A stretch of 45,540 nucleotides of DNA, taken from contig NJBH01000032.1 in NCBI GenBank assembly GCA_005223125.1, forward strand, positions 1-45,540, in the 5' to 3' direction. The position numbers were made by a program, and so were the translations under genes. This DNA comes from Promethearchaeota archaeon Loki_b32. GTDB taxonomy: Archaea > Asgardarchaeota > Lokiarchaeia > Sigyniarchaeales > SOKP01. Below are positions 2,539-20,623 of this stretch, piece by piece (within the stretch, counting starts at the first letter, position 1; the number at the start of each line of letters is the position of its first letter). The notes beneath the pieces were generated by a model, which saw nothing but the letters and a program-made list of their open reading frames with translations, did not search any database and was not told where the DNA came from.

Positions 2539-3069
2539 ATGTCTGAACAAATTTTCACTTTTAAAACGATAGTAATTGGTCCCGCGGCTGTAGGAAAGTC
2601 CAGTCTTATACGTAGATTTGTAGAAAATCAGTTCTCTTTACATTACAAGTTCACAATTGGTGTAGACTTTATGAGTAAGGTTGTAGATTATGAAATAGGG
2701 AAATCTGCTAAACTTACATTATGGGATATAGGAGGACAAGAACGTTTTAAAGTGCTACGTAGAAGTTTTTACGAAGGGACTAATGGGGCGATTGTTGTAT
2801 TTGACCTTTCAAGAGCAGGAACATTTTCGAAAATGAAGGAGTGGCTTTCAGATGTGCGTCAAGCAATTGAGATAGATTTTCCTGCTTTAATTGTAGGGAA
2901 CAAATCTGATTTAATTCCAGAAATTGGTATAGTAATTGATCGAAATGAAATTGAACAATATTCTAAAAAGGAAAACACCATCTATATTGAAACATCAGCC
3001 AAAACAGGCGATAATGTAGAAAAAGCCTTTCTTGAACTTACTCAAAGAATGGTACAAAGATGCATATAA
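2539..3069 (+). CDS. Rab-like small GTPase (copy 1)
   Basis: G1 GPAAVGKSS, G2 TIGVDF, G3 WDIGGQ, G4 NKSD, G5 TSAKTG. SD-like GGAGGT upstream. Confidence 0.95.
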   Translation: MSEQIFTFKTIVIGPAAVGKSSLIRRFVENQFSLHYKFTIGVDFMSKVVDYEIGKSAKLTLWDIGGQERFKVLRRSFYEGTNGAIVVFDLSRAGTFSKMKEWLSDVRQAIEIDFPALIVGNKSDLIPEIGIVIDRNEIEQYSKKENTIYIETSAKTGDNVEKAFLELTQRMVQRCI

Positions 3070-13869: not shown

Positions 13870-14080
13870 CTGTGTTTTAGAATTTTATTTCTTAAAATTA
13901 ATTATTTACAGATTTGTAAGTTTGTCAACATCCATCTACTATTCATTTTCATTAGTATGAGTTCACTTATTTTAAAGAGAGACATTTTTGGAATTAAGAA
14001 GAAACCTAATAAATATTGATACTTTATTTTTTCATAATTATTTTCTATCAAAAAATAACTCTTAAATAATAGTGAAAAAC

Positions 14081-16006
14081 ATGAGTAAAACTAAGGAAAT
14101 ACCTGTTCCTGATAAAATTTTGGGTTTTACACAAGTTAGACTTGATGTAGATCTAACAGATGGAAAGATTAGTAAGTCTAAACTATCTAATGAATTCTGT
14201 CGCGATTGGATTGGTGGTTATGGTTTTGGTGCCAAAGTATTATGGGATGAATGCCCAGCTGGAGTTGATCCCTTAAGCCCAGAGAACGTGTTTGTATATG
14301 CACATGGTCCATTTCCAGGAACTATTCTTCCTACAAGTTCTAAATATGGTGTATTTGCTAAATCTCCATTAACTGGCCAGTTTGGAATGGCCATTTCTTC
14401 TGGATCTGTTGGTGCTCAAGCTCGACGTGCTGGCATCAATATGATAGTATTCAAAGGTAAAGCCCCAGAACCTGTTTATATGGTTGTTGATGACGACGAT
14501 TATTATTTATTTCCATGTAAAGATTCCGTATGGGGTAAAAGTTGTTGGGAAACAGAAGAAATCTTGAGGGAAGAATTTCAAGATCAACGTCTAGGGATAA
14601 TGACTATAGGCCCAGGCGGAGAACGTATGAGTCGTATGGGATGTATCACAAATGATCGCAACAGGCAAGCAGGAAGGACAGGTATGGGGGCTGTAATGGG
14701 ATCAAAAAACCTTAAAGCCGTATGCTTTAGAGGTACTAAGGGAATTAGTGTAGCCCAACCTGTAGAGTTCTTTAAATTAGCGAAAAAATTAATAAAAGTC
14801 GCTAACGGACCTGCTACAGCTAAATATCGCGATTTAGGTACGCCTGCAGGTATAACAAGCTACAACAAGCTTGGAATGATGCCTATTTTTAACCATCGCG
14901 AAGGAACTTGGGATAAAATTGATGATGGGACATTTACAGGTGATATACTCAATCAAGATTGGGTTATAAAGAAAGTTGCATGTTCACAATGCTCAATAGG
15001 GTGTGATCACATTACTAAGGTACCTAAAGATCATCCAAATTGGCCCAATCTATATTCAAGTATAGACCAAGAACTTTGTTATAGTTTTGGAACCGCGTGC
15101 GGTAATTATGATTGGCCATCCGTATTTAAATGCGTATCATTAACAGATGATCTTGGTATTGATGCTATTAGTGGAGGCGCAACTGCTGCTATGGCTTGCG
15201 AATGTTTCGAGGAAGGTATTATCACCAAAGAGGATTTAGGTTATGAATTACCTTTTGGGTCTACAGTTAATCTTGTGAGATTTACCGAAGAAATGATTCT
15301 TGGTAAAGGTTTCGCAGGTAAGATTTTTGGAGATGGAACAAGAGAAGCTGGAAAACGATTAGAGGAAATGGGTAGAAAAAATGCAAGTTATTATGCTATG
15401 CATGTTAAGGGGTTAGAATTACCTGCTTTTGATGTACATGGAATGAGTTCATTTGCCGTTGGAATGAGTGTTTCTATTCGTGGAGCATGTCATTTACGTA
15501 ATGGAGCATATGGATTAGATGCAAAAGGGAAATTTGACCGCTTCGGTTATGATAAACCAGTTGAACGAGGTAAAGCAATTAAAGATTTAGAAGATATCTA
15601 TGCTATAATCGATTCATATATCGTGTGTAAATTTACTCGAGGAATTTATGAAAATGATGCTGAAATGGCAAAAGTCTTTGAGCTTGTGACAGGAATCCCT
15701 GTGACTGATAAATTTATACAACATAGAGGAGAAGCTATATTGAACCTTTCAAAATGTTTTAACATTCGAGAAGGATGGACACGAGATGATGATAAGCCAC
15801 CTGAAAGGTTCTTCAAACAACCACATACAAGAGGGCCTGCTAAAGGTATTGTTTTGAAAGAAGAAGGGTATCAGAAAGTATTAAGTGGTTATTTTGAAGC
15901 TCGAGGCTGGGATACTAAGACAGGAATTCCTACAGATGAAACGTTAAAGTCTCTTGGATTAGATTTTGTAATTGGCAAATTATCACCTGCAGGAGGTAAG
16001 AAATAA
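14081..16006 (+). CDS. aor: Tungsten/molybdenum aldehyde:ferredoxin oxidoreductase
   Basis: KSPLTG, GRTGMGAVMGSKNLKA, CSQCSIGC, DDLGIDAIS, HVKGLELPAFD, RGACHLR, DSYIVCKF, YFEARGWD..GIP. Confidence 0.92.
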   Translation: MSKTKEIPVPDKILGFTQVRLDVDLTDGKISKSKLSNEFCRDWIGGYGFGAKVLWDECPAGVDPLSPENVFVYAHGPFPGTILPTSSKYGVFAKSPLTGQFGMAISSGSVGAQARRAGINMIVFKGKAPEPVYMVVDDDDYYLFPCKDSVWGKSCWETEEILREEFQDQRLGIMTIGPGGERMSRMGCITNDRNRQAGRTGMGAVMGSKNLKAVCFRGTKGISVAQPVEFFKLAKKLIKVANGPATAKYRDLGTPAGITSYNKLGMMPIFNHREGTWDKIDDGTFTGDILNQDWVIKKVACSQCSIGCDHITKVPKDHPNWPNLYSSIDQELCYSFGTACGNYDWPSVFKCVSLTDDLGIDAISGGATAAMACECFEEGIITKEDLGYELPFGSTVNLVRFTEEMILGKGFAGKIFGDGTREAGKRLEEMGRKNASYYAMHVKGLELPAFDVHGMSSFAVGMSVSIRGACHLRNGAYGLDAKGKFDRFGYDKPVERGKAIKDLEDIYAIIDSYIVCKFTRGIYENDAEMAKVFELVTGIPVTDKFIQHRGEAILNLSKCFNIREGWTRDDDKPPERFFKQPHTRGPAKGIVLKEEGYQKVLSGYFEARGWDTKTGIPTDETLKSLGLDFVIGKLSPAGGKK

Positions 16007-16564
16007 ATGTCAAAAGTTGGAACTAAAAAAAGAGGAGGAGTAGTACACCAGTTTATTATCGTTGACCCAAATCTATGTTCGGGATGCGAGACATGTGAAT
16101 CTGTTTGTTCATTCGTCCATGATGGCGAATTTAACCCAATTAATACGCGAATCCATAGAGTAAGAATTGAACCCATTTTGAATGTTGCACTAGCTTGCCA
16201 AAAATGTGATGACGCACCCTGCGTGCGTGCATGTCCAGAAAAAGCTCTTGAACAGAATAAAGAAACAGGTTCAATTATCGTAGATGATGATAAGTGCAAT
16301 GGATGTGCCTTTTGTATACGTGCATGTGACTTTGGAGTTTTAGGTTTACATATACAATCTCAAAAAGCTCTTATTTGCGATTTATGCGAAACAATGAAAG
16401 AAGACTATATCGATCCAGAAAGAGGGGAACCATATCCTGCGTGTATCGATGTATGCCCAAAAGAAGCTATATCGTTGAAAGATGTTGAACAAATTGGTGA
16501 AGAAAAAAGGATTGATGCTGTAAAAAGGCTATTTGGCGAAATCTTAAAAGAAACTGAAGGTTAA
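16007..16564 (+). CDS. Multi-[4Fe-4S] ferredoxin subunit partnering AOR (DmsB/CooF-like)
   Basis: CSGCETCESVC, CQKCDDAPCVRACP, CNGCAFCIRAC, CDLC...PACIDVCP. Starts immediately after the aor stop (TAAATG). Confidence 0.9.
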   Translation: MSKVGTKKRGGVVHQFIIVDPNLCSGCETCESVCSFVHDGEFNPINTRIHRVRIEPILNVALACQKCDDAPCVRACPEKALEQNKETGSIIVDDDKCNGCAFCIRACDFGVLGLHIQSQKALICDLCETMKEDYIDPERGEPYPACIDVCPKEAISLKDVEQIGEEKRIDAVKRLFGEILKETEG

Positions 16565-16758
16565 TTCAATTTTATTATAATTATTTTATTTTAATATTTT
16601 CTTTTTTTGTACTCTGTATAATGAGACCTTTAGATTAATTCATAATTTTCATCTGAGTTTTATTTCATAAATTCATGTGAAAATATCGTATTTTCCTACA
16701 AAAATTTCATAATAATTTAATTTTAATAATATTGACAATTTACAATCACATAATACAT

Positions 16759-16779
16759 TTCTTAGAAATACTCTAAGAA
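16759..16779. promoter_or_regulatory. Palindrome upstream of hdrA (possible operator)
   Basis: TTCTTAGA-AATAC-TCTAAGAA is a perfect 8-bp inverted repeat ending 63 nt before the hdrA start. Confidence 0.3.
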
Positions 16780-16842
16780 GTAAGAGCAAAAATGGTTAAT
16801 TTTTAAGAATTAGGAGGTTAGTATTAACAAAGGTGAACAAAT

Positions 16843-18819
16843 TTGTCTGAAAAACAGACCAATAAAAATGAAAACGAAGATCAACCAAGAATAGGTGTGT
16901 TCGTGTGCCACTGAGGTATTAATATCGCAGGAATCTTAGATATTCCAAAGATAGTCGAAGAGATAGATAAATTAGACAATGTTTGGGCTTATCCATACAT
17001 CTCTCTATGAACTGAAGGTGGATCCACTGAAATCAAAGAGAAACATGAAGAATTTAAGTTTGATAGAGTTGTTGTAGCAGCTTGTACTCCAAAAACACAT
17101 CAGCCTGTTTTCCATGCTATTTTAACAGAGATGGGCTTACCACCACGTTATTTGGAGTTCGTAAACATTCGCGAGCATTGTTCATTTGTACATCAAGCTC
17201 CGGAGGTGCGTGAAAGAGCAACACTGAAAGCCATAGAATTAATCAAAGCGGGGATTTCTAGATCAAGACTATTAGAGGATGTACCAACAAAAACAGTACC
17301 AGTAAAACCAGCGGCTTTAGTTGTTGGTGGAGGAATCGCAGGATTATCAGCAGCAATCGATTTAGGAGATGCGGGTTATAAAGTATATTTAGTGGAGAAG
17401 AATACGACGATTGGTGGTCGTATGTCCCAACTCGATAGAACTTTCCCAACAGACGATTGTTCGATATGAATATTGGGACCAAAAATGCTTGAAGCCAATC
17501 GCCATCCAAACGTAGAAATATTAACCTACAGTGAAGTCATAGAAATAGATGGGTACATCGGTAACTTTAAAGCTAAATTAAGAAGAAAAGCACGCTTTGT
17601 TGATGAGACAAAATGTATTGGTTGTGGTTCTTGTACAGATATATGTCCTGTTTACACGAGTAATTACTTTGATGAACATTTATCTGCGAGAAAAGCTATA
17701 GATATTGCTTTTGCCCAAGCAGTTCCGGCAGTTTCACAACTTAACCGAGACGTTTGTGTTGAATGTTTTGCGTGTGTTGATGCATGTGAACAAGAAGCCA
17801 TAGATTTCAGCCAACGAGATAAAATTATAGAACTTGATATTGGAACGATAATAGTTGCTACTGGTTGGGACCTCTATAAAGGTGATGATTATGGTTATGG
17901 TATTTATGATAACGTAATCAACCAAATAGAATTAGAGAGGATCCTAGCACCTAATGGACCAACTTATGGTCATTTGAAGCGTCCCTCTGACGGTAAACGC
18001 CCTACTAAAGTATTATTTATTAATTGCGTTGGATCCAGAGATATAAATAAAAATGCTCATTGCAGTGTTATCTGTTGTAATCTTTCTCTAAAAAACTCTA
18101 AATTAATCAAGTCAGAATACCCTGATTCGCAAATTGTTTGTTGTTATATTGATATGCGATGTGCTGGGAAAGATTACGAAGAATATTATAGAAGATCTCG
18201 AGATGCGGGAATTATTTTTGTTAAGGGATTGGTCGGAAAAATAGAACAAGATCCGTTAACGAAAAATCTGAAAGTACAATTTGAACCAGTTGGTACTGAT
18301 AGTATAGTTTCTATGGAATTTCACATGGTGGTTACTTCACCAGCATCATTACCATCTCAAGGAACTAACGAAATTGCCAGAGTTCTGAAAATGGAAAAAA
18401 GCCCTGATGGGTTCTTAAAAGAATATCATGCACGACTCGATCCAATTAGTACAAAAGTCCCGGGAATTTATATCTGTGGTTCTGCCCAAGGTCAAAAAGA
18501 GATTGATAAGACAGTAAGCCAAGCTAGAGGAGCAGCATCAGTAGCAGGCATTCCAATGGGAAAAGGTGAATATACTATGGAATTAATCCGAGCTAAACCC
18601 TCAGATGAACGTTGTGCTAAATGCTATAGATGTATAGAGGCCTGTCCATATACAGCAATTTCAGTAAATCCTGAAGGAAATCTTGTTGTTGACCTCATAA
18701 ATTGTCGAGGTTGTGGAGCTTGTGCATCATTATGTCCTTCAAAAGCAATTGAATTAACATACTTTAGAGATGACCAGTATATGGCATTAATAGATGAATT
18801 ATTACCAATTGAGGAATAA
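16843..18819 (+). CDS. hdrA: Heterodisulfide reductase subunit A, selenoprotein with 3 Sec (U24, U56, U209), 658 aa
   Basis: TTG start 6 nt after AGGTGA. One continuous frame reads RIGVFVCH-TGA(16912)-GINIAG, YISL-TGA(17008)-TEGG, VVAACTP, NIREHCSFVH, VGGGIAG, TFPTDDCSI-TGA(17467)-ILGPKM, CVGSRD, CSVICC, then C-terminal ferredoxin motifs. It joins ORF-track pieces 17131-17469 and 17473-18819 to normal HdrA length. Confidence 0.95.
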
Positions 18820-18835
18820 AGAGGTCGAGAAAAAA

Positions 18836-19294
18836 ATGGCAGAAGATAATGATTTAAAAATTATTGTATATGCTTGTTGGAAATGAGGGTATGGTTCAGC
18901 GGATATGGCAGGTACAATTCGTGCACAATACCCGGATTCCATTAGAAATGTCTTAGTACCTTGCGCGGGACGTGTAGGATGTGATCTAATAATGCGGGCA
19001 TTTGGTAGAGGTGCTGATGGCGTAGTAATTAATGCTTGATATCCTAAAGAGTGTGATTATGAAACTGGAAATTACTATGCATATCGTCAAGTCGAATACG
19101 TTAAGGAAATATTAAAAGTTATTGGCATGAGTCCAGAAAGAATCAAAATGATATATTGCACAGCAGCTGAGGGTCAAAAATTTCAAAAGGAAGCTATAGA
19201 AATCGATAAAACTATACGTAAATTGGGACCTAGTCCCTTACGTACAAAAGGCGGCACACCTAAAGAAAAAGCTAAAGCGAAAGCAAAGGCTTAA
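18836..19294 (+). CDS. mvhD: MvhD/VhuD [2Fe-2S] subunit, selenoprotein with 2 Sec (U17, U68), 152 aa; absent from ORF track
   Basis: GAGGT SD, ATG at 18836. Reads MAEDNDLKIIVYACWK-TGA(18884)-GYGSADMAGTIRAQYP...VPCAGRV...GADGVVINA-TGA(19037)-YPKECDYETGN...PERI...AAEG..F...LGPSP. Both TGAs are at MvhD Cys positions. Confidence 0.95.
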
Positions 19295-19300
19295 AAAATA

Positions 19301-19373
19301 ATGTGTTTACTGATGAAACTGAGTTAAAAAAATGAGAACTCAGTTGAGGAAATGGGAGCACCATATAACACAT
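19301..19373 (+). promoter_or_regulatory. Eukaryote-type SECIS element
   Basis: Basal helix ATGTGTT (19301-07)/AACACAT (19367-73). Core ATGA (19313-16) opposite GA (19346-47). Perfect 9-bp helix AACTGAGTT (19317-25)/AACTCAGTT (19337-45) with A-rich apical loop AAAAAAATGAG. Begins 6 nt after the mvhD stop. Confidence 0.9.
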
Positions 19374-19483
19374 AAAAAAAATTTTCAGATGGTTTAATCA
19401 AAATTATTGTAAAATATTTCAAAAAATTTGGGAAATTAAGAAAAAAATAAATAAGTTAAATATAATAATTGAGTTGGAATTAC

Positions 19484-20623
19484 ATGGATGCAATAGATGA
19501 GTATCTGATAAAGATAGAAGATTTTTCAAAGATTTTAGCAGCATTGTTAAAAGAGAAAGTAGTAGATAAAATCATTGGCGCTCAATTGAGGGTTGATAAG
19601 AAATCAGGTAATATTGATAGATTTACTGTTCAACCTAAATTAGCAGAAAAAGAAGAGGATGTAAAAGATTTTCCTTTAACTCCTCTAATTGCATTTGGAT
19701 ATGCAAGAACAGATTCAGCTTCTAAATTTTTACATAAATCTGTCGCAGGTGCGATGAATGAAAAAGTTGGGCTAATTGTACGTCCTTGCGATACAAGAGC
19801 ATTAATAGAACTCGCAAAAATCAAGCAAGTAAATCTCGATAACCTCTTTATAATCGGTATTGAAGATAGAGGTATGATGCCTAAAGCAGGGCGAGAGATG
19901 AGATCGAATAAAGATGTTGATCCAACGAAAATCGTAAAAGAAAAAGTAGGAGATAAGGGTCTTATCGTTAAGATGGAAGACGGAAGCACAAAAGAGCTTA
20001 ATCTTACTGTTGCTGAGAATTGTTTGAGATGTTATCGTAAAATTCCGGTAATCGCTGATTTAACAGTTAGTGATCTTGGTATTCCAATTGATTCAGATGA
20101 GATTATCTTAAAAGTATATTCAGATAAAGGAAGTGAAATTTTAGATAAATCAGGAATCAAGAAAAAAACACTACCGGATAAGGAGAAAAAGGCTCATTCA
20201 ACCAAATTTAATGAAATCATTGAAAAAGCTAAAGAAAAACGAGCAAAGGATTTAGAAGAATGGGAAAAACTTTCACAAGAAGATAAAATTGCGGAATTAC
20301 TTAAGTGTACAGCATGCGGGATCTGCATTCGTGGATGTCCTGTTTGCTATTGTGTAGATTGCATTCTAACAAAGAAAAAGAAAGATAAAAACATTGATAA
20401 TGTAACTTATCATTTAACACGAATAGCTCATGACGCAGATCGTTGTATTGAGTGCGGGAATTGCTCAAATAATTGTCCACAGAATTTGCCACTATCATTA
20501 TATTTTCAATCGTTAAATGAAGCCTTTAAAGAGAAATTCGATTATGAACCGGGTATATCTCTTGAAGACATTCCATTTCGATCTGGAAAAGCAATTTCCC
20601 AGATGGAATTAGAAAAAACATAA
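19484..20623 (+). CDS. FdhB/FrhB-family (F420-binding type) Fe-S flavoprotein subunit
   Basis: RPCDTRALIELAKIKQVNLDNLFIIG, NCLRC..KIP..ADL, CTACGICIRGCPVCYCVDC, CIECGNCSNNCP. I prefer ATG 19484; TTG 19469 is the alternative start. Confidence 0.85.
   Translation: MDAIDEYLIKIEDFSKILAALLKEKVVDKIIGAQLRVDKKSGNIDRFTVQPKLAEKEEDVKDFPLTPLIAFGYARTDSASKFLHKSVAGAMNEKVGLIVRPCDTRALIELAKIKQVNLDNLFIIGIEDRGMMPKAGREMRSNKDVDPTKIVKEKVGDKGLIVKMEDGSTKELNLTVAENCLRCYRKIPVIADLTVSDLGIPIDSDEIILKVYSDKGSEILDKSGIKKKTLPDKEKKAHSTKFNEIIEKAKEKRAKDLEEWEKLSQEDKIAELLKCTACGICIRGCPVCYCVDCILTKKKKDKNIDNVTYHLTRIAHDADRCIECGNCSNNCPQNLPLSLYFQSLNEAFKEKFDYEPGISLEDIPFRSGKAISQMELEKT

Follow-up and report, generated by a model that had tools for sequence, protein, structure and literature searches.

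The 45,540-nucleotide stretch analysed here, the window, covers positions 1 to 45,540 of contig NJBH01000032.1 of Promethearchaeota archaeon Loki_b32 (GCA_005223125.1), and contains two adjacent genes, hdrA and mvhD, with five in-frame TGA codons between them and a single selenocysteine insertion sequence (SECIS) element behind the second gene. HdrA is presumably an electron-bifurcating flavoprotein and MvhD its [2Fe-2S] adaptor. A sequence-only reading of this DNA had proposed that the TGAs encode selenocysteine (Sec), and that one eukaryote-like SECIS recodes them in both cistrons. It had placed them at 16912, 17008 and 17467 in hdrA and at 18884 and 19037 in mvhD, with a gap of 16 nucleotides between the genes; all of these positions were right. 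When TGA is read as Sec, which is how both frames were obtained, the locus comprises the following features.

16843-18819, plus strand: hdrA, encoding a heterodisulfide reductase subunit A-like flavoprotein of 658 amino acids, with a TTG start, a TAA stop and Sec at U24, U56 and U209

16912-16914, plus strand: TGA of Sec24, in a CxU motif and at a Cys column

17008-17010, plus strand: TGA of Sec56, at a Cys column; a labile site

17467-17469, plus strand: TGA of Sec209, in a CxxU motif; the canonical Sec of archaeal HdrA, equivalent to Sec197 of Methanococcus maripaludis

18820-18835, plus strand: hdrA-mvhD spacer of 16 nucleotides, with the Shine-Dalgarno motif GAGGT right behind the hdrA stop

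18836-19294, plus strand: mvhD (VhuD/FrhD), 152 amino acids, with an ATG start, a TAA stop, U17 (TGA 18884) and U68 (TGA 19037)

19301-19373, plus strand: lokiSECIS, type I, with a basal helix at 19301-19307/19367-19373 and the AUGA core at 19313-19316

19317-19325/19337-19345, plus strand: upper part of the lokiSECIS, a helix of 9 base pairs with an A-rich loop of 11 nucleotides ending in AG, followed by GA at 19346-19347

The hdrA product matches solved HdrA chains with an expect value (E) of 2e-202, and its top NCBIfam models are those of HdrA, with scores below the model cut-offs. The mvhD product matches PF02662 (E 4e-40) as well as solved MvhD/VhuD chains (E 3e-33). Consistent with the proposal that the TGAs sit at Cys positions of these families, all five fall into Cys columns when the two proteins are aligned with their solved homologues; chain 9sfi_A carries an X at the U209 column. 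The same column holds Sec197 of M. maripaludis, for which cryo-electron microscopy suggests a Cys-Sec bridge between flavin adenine dinucleotide and cluster A3 (PMC13518236). If codons were hit randomly, the chance that five of five TGAs coincide with Cys-type positions (38 of 810 positions) would be about 2e-7. U24 and U209 do not vary among 19 complete orthologous loci, whereas position 56 is Sec in three and Cys in 16 of them, and position 81 of hdrA is Sec in three other orthologous loci. Sec is found at U209 in 39/39 complete loci, and at position 24 in every complete locus of the genus; three loci from another family have Cys at position 24. Such exchanges between TGA and Cys at hdrA positions 24, 56 and 81 among relatives are the pattern expected of selenoproteins. 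Close mvhD homologues among 40 relatives searched nearly all contain the same two TGAs.

Might the TGAs nevertheless be true stops, produced by pseudogenization or assembly errors, or has TGA been reassigned throughout the genome? Standard gene calling does break both genes, but dozens of genomes share these TGAs, which occupy Cys columns only and lie within intact frames. The codons at hdrA 24, hdrA 209 and both mvhD sites are present in 18/18 complete orthologous loci from other genomes. In assembled contigs from RNA libraries, all from one separate study, TGA 17008 and 17467 are unchanged (X8 record 20; eight differences, all elsewhere), as are TGA 18884 and 19037 (X9 record 31; no differences); none of the contigs shown has TGT or TGC at a TGA site, a comparison that covers four of the five codons, with TGA 16912 not directly displayed in the listed contigs. 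Conservation across the 18 loci together with the unchanged RNA-library contigs rules out sequencing error. TGA also serves as the normal stop for about 14% of genes (13.7% of long frames and 20% of closely followed genes, as common as TAG), and a dedicated tRNA-Sec and Sec machinery are present. Recurrence and stop usage thus refute true stops and genome-wide reassignment alike, to which we attach next to no probability, and the five UGAs almost certainly encode Sec.

The machinery that the sequence-only reading had proposed to look for was found in the genome, which is 95.5% complete: SepSecS, SelB, two SelD genes with one TGA each, and a PSTK homologue (E 6e-40, yet below the family cut-off). 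ARAGORN at default settings detected no tRNA-Sec in the genome, and relaxed settings returned noise. An anticodon-stem search located the gene at C57:28655-28503 (L012 ~2880-3033, minus strand), just upstream of SepSecS. It contains two introns, a D-arm insert of 30 nucleotides and a T-loop insert of 29 nucleotides; without them it is 94 nucleotides long, with an acceptor stem of 9 base pairs, a 9/4 fold, a D stem of 7 base pairs, a UCA anticodon and a G discriminator, and ARAGORN calls this intron-free sequence tRNA-SeC. The top tRNA-Sec candidate on C29 (L001:1500-1601, minus strand) was rejected, being a UCC anticodon (Gly) tRNA with a T-loop intron that ARAGORN had missed.

The element at 19301-19373 agrees with all six published lokiSECIS criteria without a mismatch, including five of five leading adenines in the loop and a perfect stem of 9 base pairs, and its core starts 18 nucleotides past the mvhD stop. 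Judging by this match to the published element, it would form a kink-turn-type AUGA/GA core. The hairpin folds with a z score of -4.1 relative to shuffled sequences. The strict lokiSECIS pattern has a single match on this contig; genome-wide it picks out selenoprotein genes, and reversed and complemented controls contain no perfect match. A covariance model trained on 20 other elements, all from outside this clade, places 19301-19373 first in the window, with 17.4 bits (E 0.016), and the best match inside hdrA reaches only 8.2 bits (E 7.6). The earlier observation of a sole SECIS-like hairpin, located after mvhD, is thereby borne out. Between 16565 and 19470, published loose eSECIS and eaSECIS (GAA/A) patterns match nowhere except at position 19313, and the archaeal GAA/A-type SECIS, with its bulge between stems and G-C-rich upper stem, has no match. 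An Rfam scan of the window yielded no family at gathering score, curated eukaryotic SECIS families included.

This one-to-one relationship between locus and element extends to relatives. Exactly one element, always after mvhD, is present in 20/20 orthologous loci, and the same holds for 17 loci that are paralogous or more distant. Two covariance models, built from separate alignments because a joint MAFFT alignment of all elements misaligned their 3' halves, detected no second SECIS in or before hdrA at E < 1 in any of these 20 and 17 loci. In the diverse set, the upper and basal helices covary: 15 of 17 pairs show two-sided changes, and 0/500 shuffles score as high. The UGA codons of hdrA lie 2401, 2305 and 1846 nucleotides from the SECIS core, the first distance being the roughly 2.4 kilobases noted previously, and those of mvhD 429 and 276 nucleotides.

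In all likelihood, the one SECIS behind mvhD recodes the UGAs of hdrA as well as those of mvhD, making this a standard hdrA-mvhD selenoprotein pair of the Lokiarchaeia, and sharing of one eukaryote-like element by two cistrons, as the sequence-only reading had it, stands as the best explanation. Stop codons provide one line of evidence. Across 40 loci hdrA ends in TAA (18) or TAG (22) and never in TGA; on a quickly built tree of the 40 genes, at least 11 changes from one of these two stops to the other are needed, five of them forced by starred branches. A third group of hdrA loci has TAA or TAG in 8/8. By comparison, mvhD, which adjoins the SECIS, ends in TGA in 4/40 loci, and one hdrA with Cys only ends in TGA. 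Avoidance of TGA at the hdrA stop fits a recoding signal downstream of hdrA, an argument made by Mariotti (PMC4989117). A second line comes from a solo two-Sec hdrA in the same genome (L023:4900-6936; C36:16899-18935, plus strand), which is not followed by mvhD and carries a SECIS of its own, with an AUGA/AA core, 11 nucleotides after the stop. Where the following mvhD is missing, a SECIS is thus present and detectable.

Alternatively, hdrA may possess its own unrecognised signal of another shape, within the coding sequence or the 5' leader, leaving the 3' SECIS to serve mainly or only mvhD. SECIS elements of methanococci belong to another type and have also been tested in 5' leaders (PMC11881835), a conserved purine-rich motif lies 30 nucleotides before hdrA with a hairpin at ~16757-16781, and the models found no element in four distant loci. 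However, neither 16565-19300 nor 36 related loci contain an eSECIS-like or GAA/A-type element that could fill this role, Mariotti's RNAz screen of coding sequences yielded nothing else, solo Sec-hdrA uses an ordinary lokiSECIS, and the avoidance of TGA at the hdrA stop points downstream. We regard a private hdrA signal as very improbable.

How might a single element serve two cistrons? We envision a scenario whereby hdrA and mvhD are transcribed into a single mRNA with the SECIS in its 3' untranslated part. The element would bind an adaptor protein and thereby retain SelB-GTP-Sec-tRNA(Sec) on the mRNA, so that a ribosome paused at any sufficiently distant upstream UGA might be served, whichever cistron it is translating. 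Like its eukaryotic counterparts, the SECIS would act by looping of the RNA or by a high local concentration, and would not need to cross the intervening TAA together with a ribosome. Translation of hdrA would end normally, given that UAA and UAG would not be recoded, mvhD would initiate at a Shine-Dalgarno site of its own, whether or not it is partially coupled to hdrA, and the products would be HdrA with three Sec residues and MvhD with two. The methanococcal system tolerates loose distances, as demonstrated up to ~680 nucleotides (PMC9622424); here, the reach would amount to 2.4 kilobases across two cistrons.

The sequence-only reading had invoked re-initiation after the hdrA stop. Conceivably, sharing could indeed depend on translational coupling, such that a SECIS-loaded complex accompanies ribosomes from termination on hdrA to re-initiation on mvhD, and that a short spacer is required. 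The spacer measures 11-16 nucleotides in nearly all measurable loci, and the genome contains another candidate pair, also with a gap of 16 nucleotides and one SECIS. Against this, hdrA is translated first, and its UGAs would need the SECIS before any re-initiation takes place. The spacer length also corresponds to the room taken up by a Shine-Dalgarno site plus spacing: the motif is kept in 35/40 loci and matches the 16S tail. In Haloferax, coupling falls by 40-60% at a spacing of 13-14 nucleotides, and it is already much reduced at 13-16 nucleotides in the tested species (PMC10666635). Short spacers are moreover common between subunit genes of one complex, whether or not these contain Sec. 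An obligatory role of coupling hence appears unlikely, and re-initiation is neither required by the data nor demonstrated by them.

Several points weigh against sharing of the SECIS by both genes. To our knowledge, Sec insertion and long-range action have not been demonstrated experimentally in any Asgard archaeon. The stop-codon test is weak, because the loci are kin and the FdhB/FrhB-like gene next to the pair is likewise never terminated by TGA (0/19). Two RNA-library contigs span the hdrA-mvhD junction, which weakly favours a single transcript, but all such contigs stem from the one study, none extends to the SECIS or the FdhB/FrhB-like gene, and assembled contigs cannot prove a single transcript. 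An SBP2-like protein was not found in the genome at its 95.5% completeness, where the L7Ae family is represented by no more than two short frames of 125 and 129 amino acids. Neither model detected a SECIS in the four distant loci (L094-L097), and the models may therefore miss divergent elements, which limits the negative result of the search for a second one. Finally, a lokiSECIS tested in M. maripaludis did not function there (PMC11881835).

The sequence-only reading had left open whether this arrangement was novel. It is not: the locus is a member of the published shared-lokiSECIS HdrA-VhuD system, every testable defining feature of which was found here, and both arrangement and interpretation have been in print since 2016 and again in 2024. 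According to Mariotti 2016 (PMC4989117), HdrA and VhuD of Lokiarchaeota have one lokiSECIS in common, which lies downstream of VhuD; the two proteins are most likely produced from a shared polycistronic mRNA, and up to six UGAs across ~2 kilobases are recoded by this element. Huang, Xiao and Zhang 2024 (PMC11227280) catalogued the arrangement across > 400 Asgard genomes, in which hdrA and frhD are adjacent and almost all share one eSECIS-like structure. The present locus resembles the pair of Mariotti in gene order, the very short spacer, a multi-Sec HdrA with the canonical site, a two-Sec VhuD and an hdrA stop of UAA or UAG, and in the single element after VhuD with AUGA, a stem of 9 base pairs, an A-rich loop of 11 nucleotides ending in AG, and GA. 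It differs in having five rather than up to six UGAs, which span 2.4 instead of ~2 kilobases; the tRNA-Sec here has two introns, whereas that described in 2016 has one in the T loop. The element also fits the type I eSECIS-like model of Huang 2024, which consists of core, upper stem and loop only, no conserved nucleotides around these having been reported (PMC11227280). The solo Sec-hdrA with its own SECIS departs from the statement of that study that hdrA and frhD are 'always together'.

Like the eukaryotic type I SECIS, which acts with SBP2 and eEFSec, the element resides in the 3' untranslated region, has an AUGA/GA core and apical adenines, and is proposed to act at a distance; SELENOP likewise has many UGAs per mRNA (PMC4989117). 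Unlike its eukaryotic counterpart, it has a shorter upper helix (9 base pairs), an extra 3' helix and a polycistronic context, and SBP2 was not found. The element would work like a eukaryotic SECIS, yet is not a member of that family by the Rfam and SBP2 tests. HdrA and VhuD of Methanococcales and Methanopyrus are homologous proteins with the same canonical Sec (U209 corresponds to Sec197), a two-Sec VhuD and the same gene order, but their HdrA contains one Sec and their SECIS is of the archaeal GAA/A type, of which there is no match here.

Translation signals and neighbouring genes complete the locus.

16812-16836, plus strand: two Shine-Dalgarno-like motifs before hdrA, GGAGGT ~30 nucleotides and GGTGA ~6 nucleotides ahead of the TTG, both conserved in orthologues

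19484-20623, plus strand: FdhB/FrhB-like Fe-S subunit gene, without Sec; a conserved neighbour

The anti-Shine-Dalgarno sequence at the 3' end of 16S RNA matches the Shine-Dalgarno motifs. GGAGGT is the stronger of the two motifs before hdrA and is conserved, yet no start codon follows it at the usual spacing; the hairpin further upstream (~16757-16781) comprises 10 base pairs and may equally be described as a palindrome. A scan for sigma-70 promoters and terminators returned counts at chance level, such models being unsuited to an archaeon. The FdhB/FrhB-like gene follows mvhD in 19/20 orthologous loci, the remaining locus stopping at a contig edge, and its nearest relatives are 83-92% identical and mostly from Promethearchaeota. 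Within 14072-20623, the pair is flanked by aldehyde ferredoxin oxidoreductase and ferredoxin genes and by the FdhB/FrhB-like gene; hdrB, hdrC and hydrogenase genes are not found alongside it in this interval, and hdrC homologues are located on other contigs.

The genome encodes further selenoproteins. A paralogous four-Sec hdrA (L022:7008-4971, minus strand; C36 ~79000-76970) contains inserts of 30 and 35 nucleotides that are absent from seven orthologues. Both have perfect central helices of 4 base pairs and 3-nucleotide bulges, the shape of a bulge-helix-bulge intron; the first ends right before a Sec codon, and excising both restores a frame of 632 amino acids. A third cistron or a frameshift was rejected in favour of a single gene with two intron-shaped inserts. 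Together with its mvhD, this gene has six UGAs and one SECIS, whose AUGA provides the mvhD stop. The UU family comprises proteins of ~160 amino acids with adjacent UGA-UGA codons (C-U-U or D-U-U), usually with a SECIS ~8 nucleotides past the stop. It occurs in 47/53 genomes of the genus, has no Pfam match and is missing from the seven Asgard families listed by Huang 2024 (PMC11227280). Its loci in this genome are L024:2529-3704 (C24) and L110:550-1504 (C32). The C32 pair (L110:550-1568; C32:56526-57544) consists of two UU-family genes 16 nucleotides apart, the second with a probable ATT start behind a Shine-Dalgarno motif, and one SECIS behind the second gene; this single case is a candidate for a second shared-SECIS operon outside hdrA-mvhD. 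Unlike it, the C24 pair has one SECIS per gene.

Two small frames of 103 and 81 amino acids (L025:1369-1680, C11:35368-35679; L026:1426-1671, C70:14425-14670), each containing a hydrophobic segment and a single in-frame TGA and immediately followed by a strong SECIS, possibly represent unlisted selenoproteins. A SECIS-like element of 43 bits (L109:1501-1571, minus strand; C22:33644-33574) has no evident selenoprotein frame directly upstream. Other selenoprotein genes (L027 = C16:9975-12367; L098, L099, L111) all belong to known families. The two selD genes lie in tandem and have a UxxK motif and type II elements, three Prx-like (PrxL) genes contain UxxC (two) or UxxU (one), and the stop codon of vhuU is a UGA within the SECIS core.

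One property of the element may be new, namely an additional helix on its 3' side.

19352-19364, plus strand: third SECIS helix, 4 base pairs with a 5-nucleotide loop ending in GCA, which gives a three-way junction

Such a helix is found 3' of the GA core in 45/46 elements examined (from hdrA-mvhD pairs, paralogues, PrxL and other genes) and, by eye, also in both SelD elements and in that of VhuU. SECIS families differ in the stem sequence of this helix but retain a GNRA-like or GCA signature in its loop. In the diverse set the three core pairs are 94% paired, with a two-sided change at just one of them, and the helix is invariant in 20 orthologues, rendering covariation there uninformative. 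Because there is little covariation within the sets, the evidence for this helix rests on the differing stem sequences between families. A literature search on an Asgard SECIS three-way junction found nothing, and the texts, as distinct from the figures, of Mariotti 2016 (PMC4989117) and Huang 2024 (PMC11227280) do not mention the helix. Tentatively, and with more doubt than confidence, we propose that the Loki-type SECIS is a three-way junction, whose conserved and so far undescribed third helix is present in nearly all elements of the lineage (hdrA-mvhD, PrxL, VhuU, SelD and the UU family) and belongs to a putative site for a SECIS-binding factor, and that one element is able to license whichever upstream cistron is closely linked to it, as the C32 pair suggests.

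The locus is one more example of a known arrangement, and recognizing it as such corrects the annotation of two genes that look broken. The natural variants, with 3 to 7 UGAs per SECIS and with solo or paired genes, are usable for the design of tests, and the third helix should enter constructs and models of the Loki-type SECIS.

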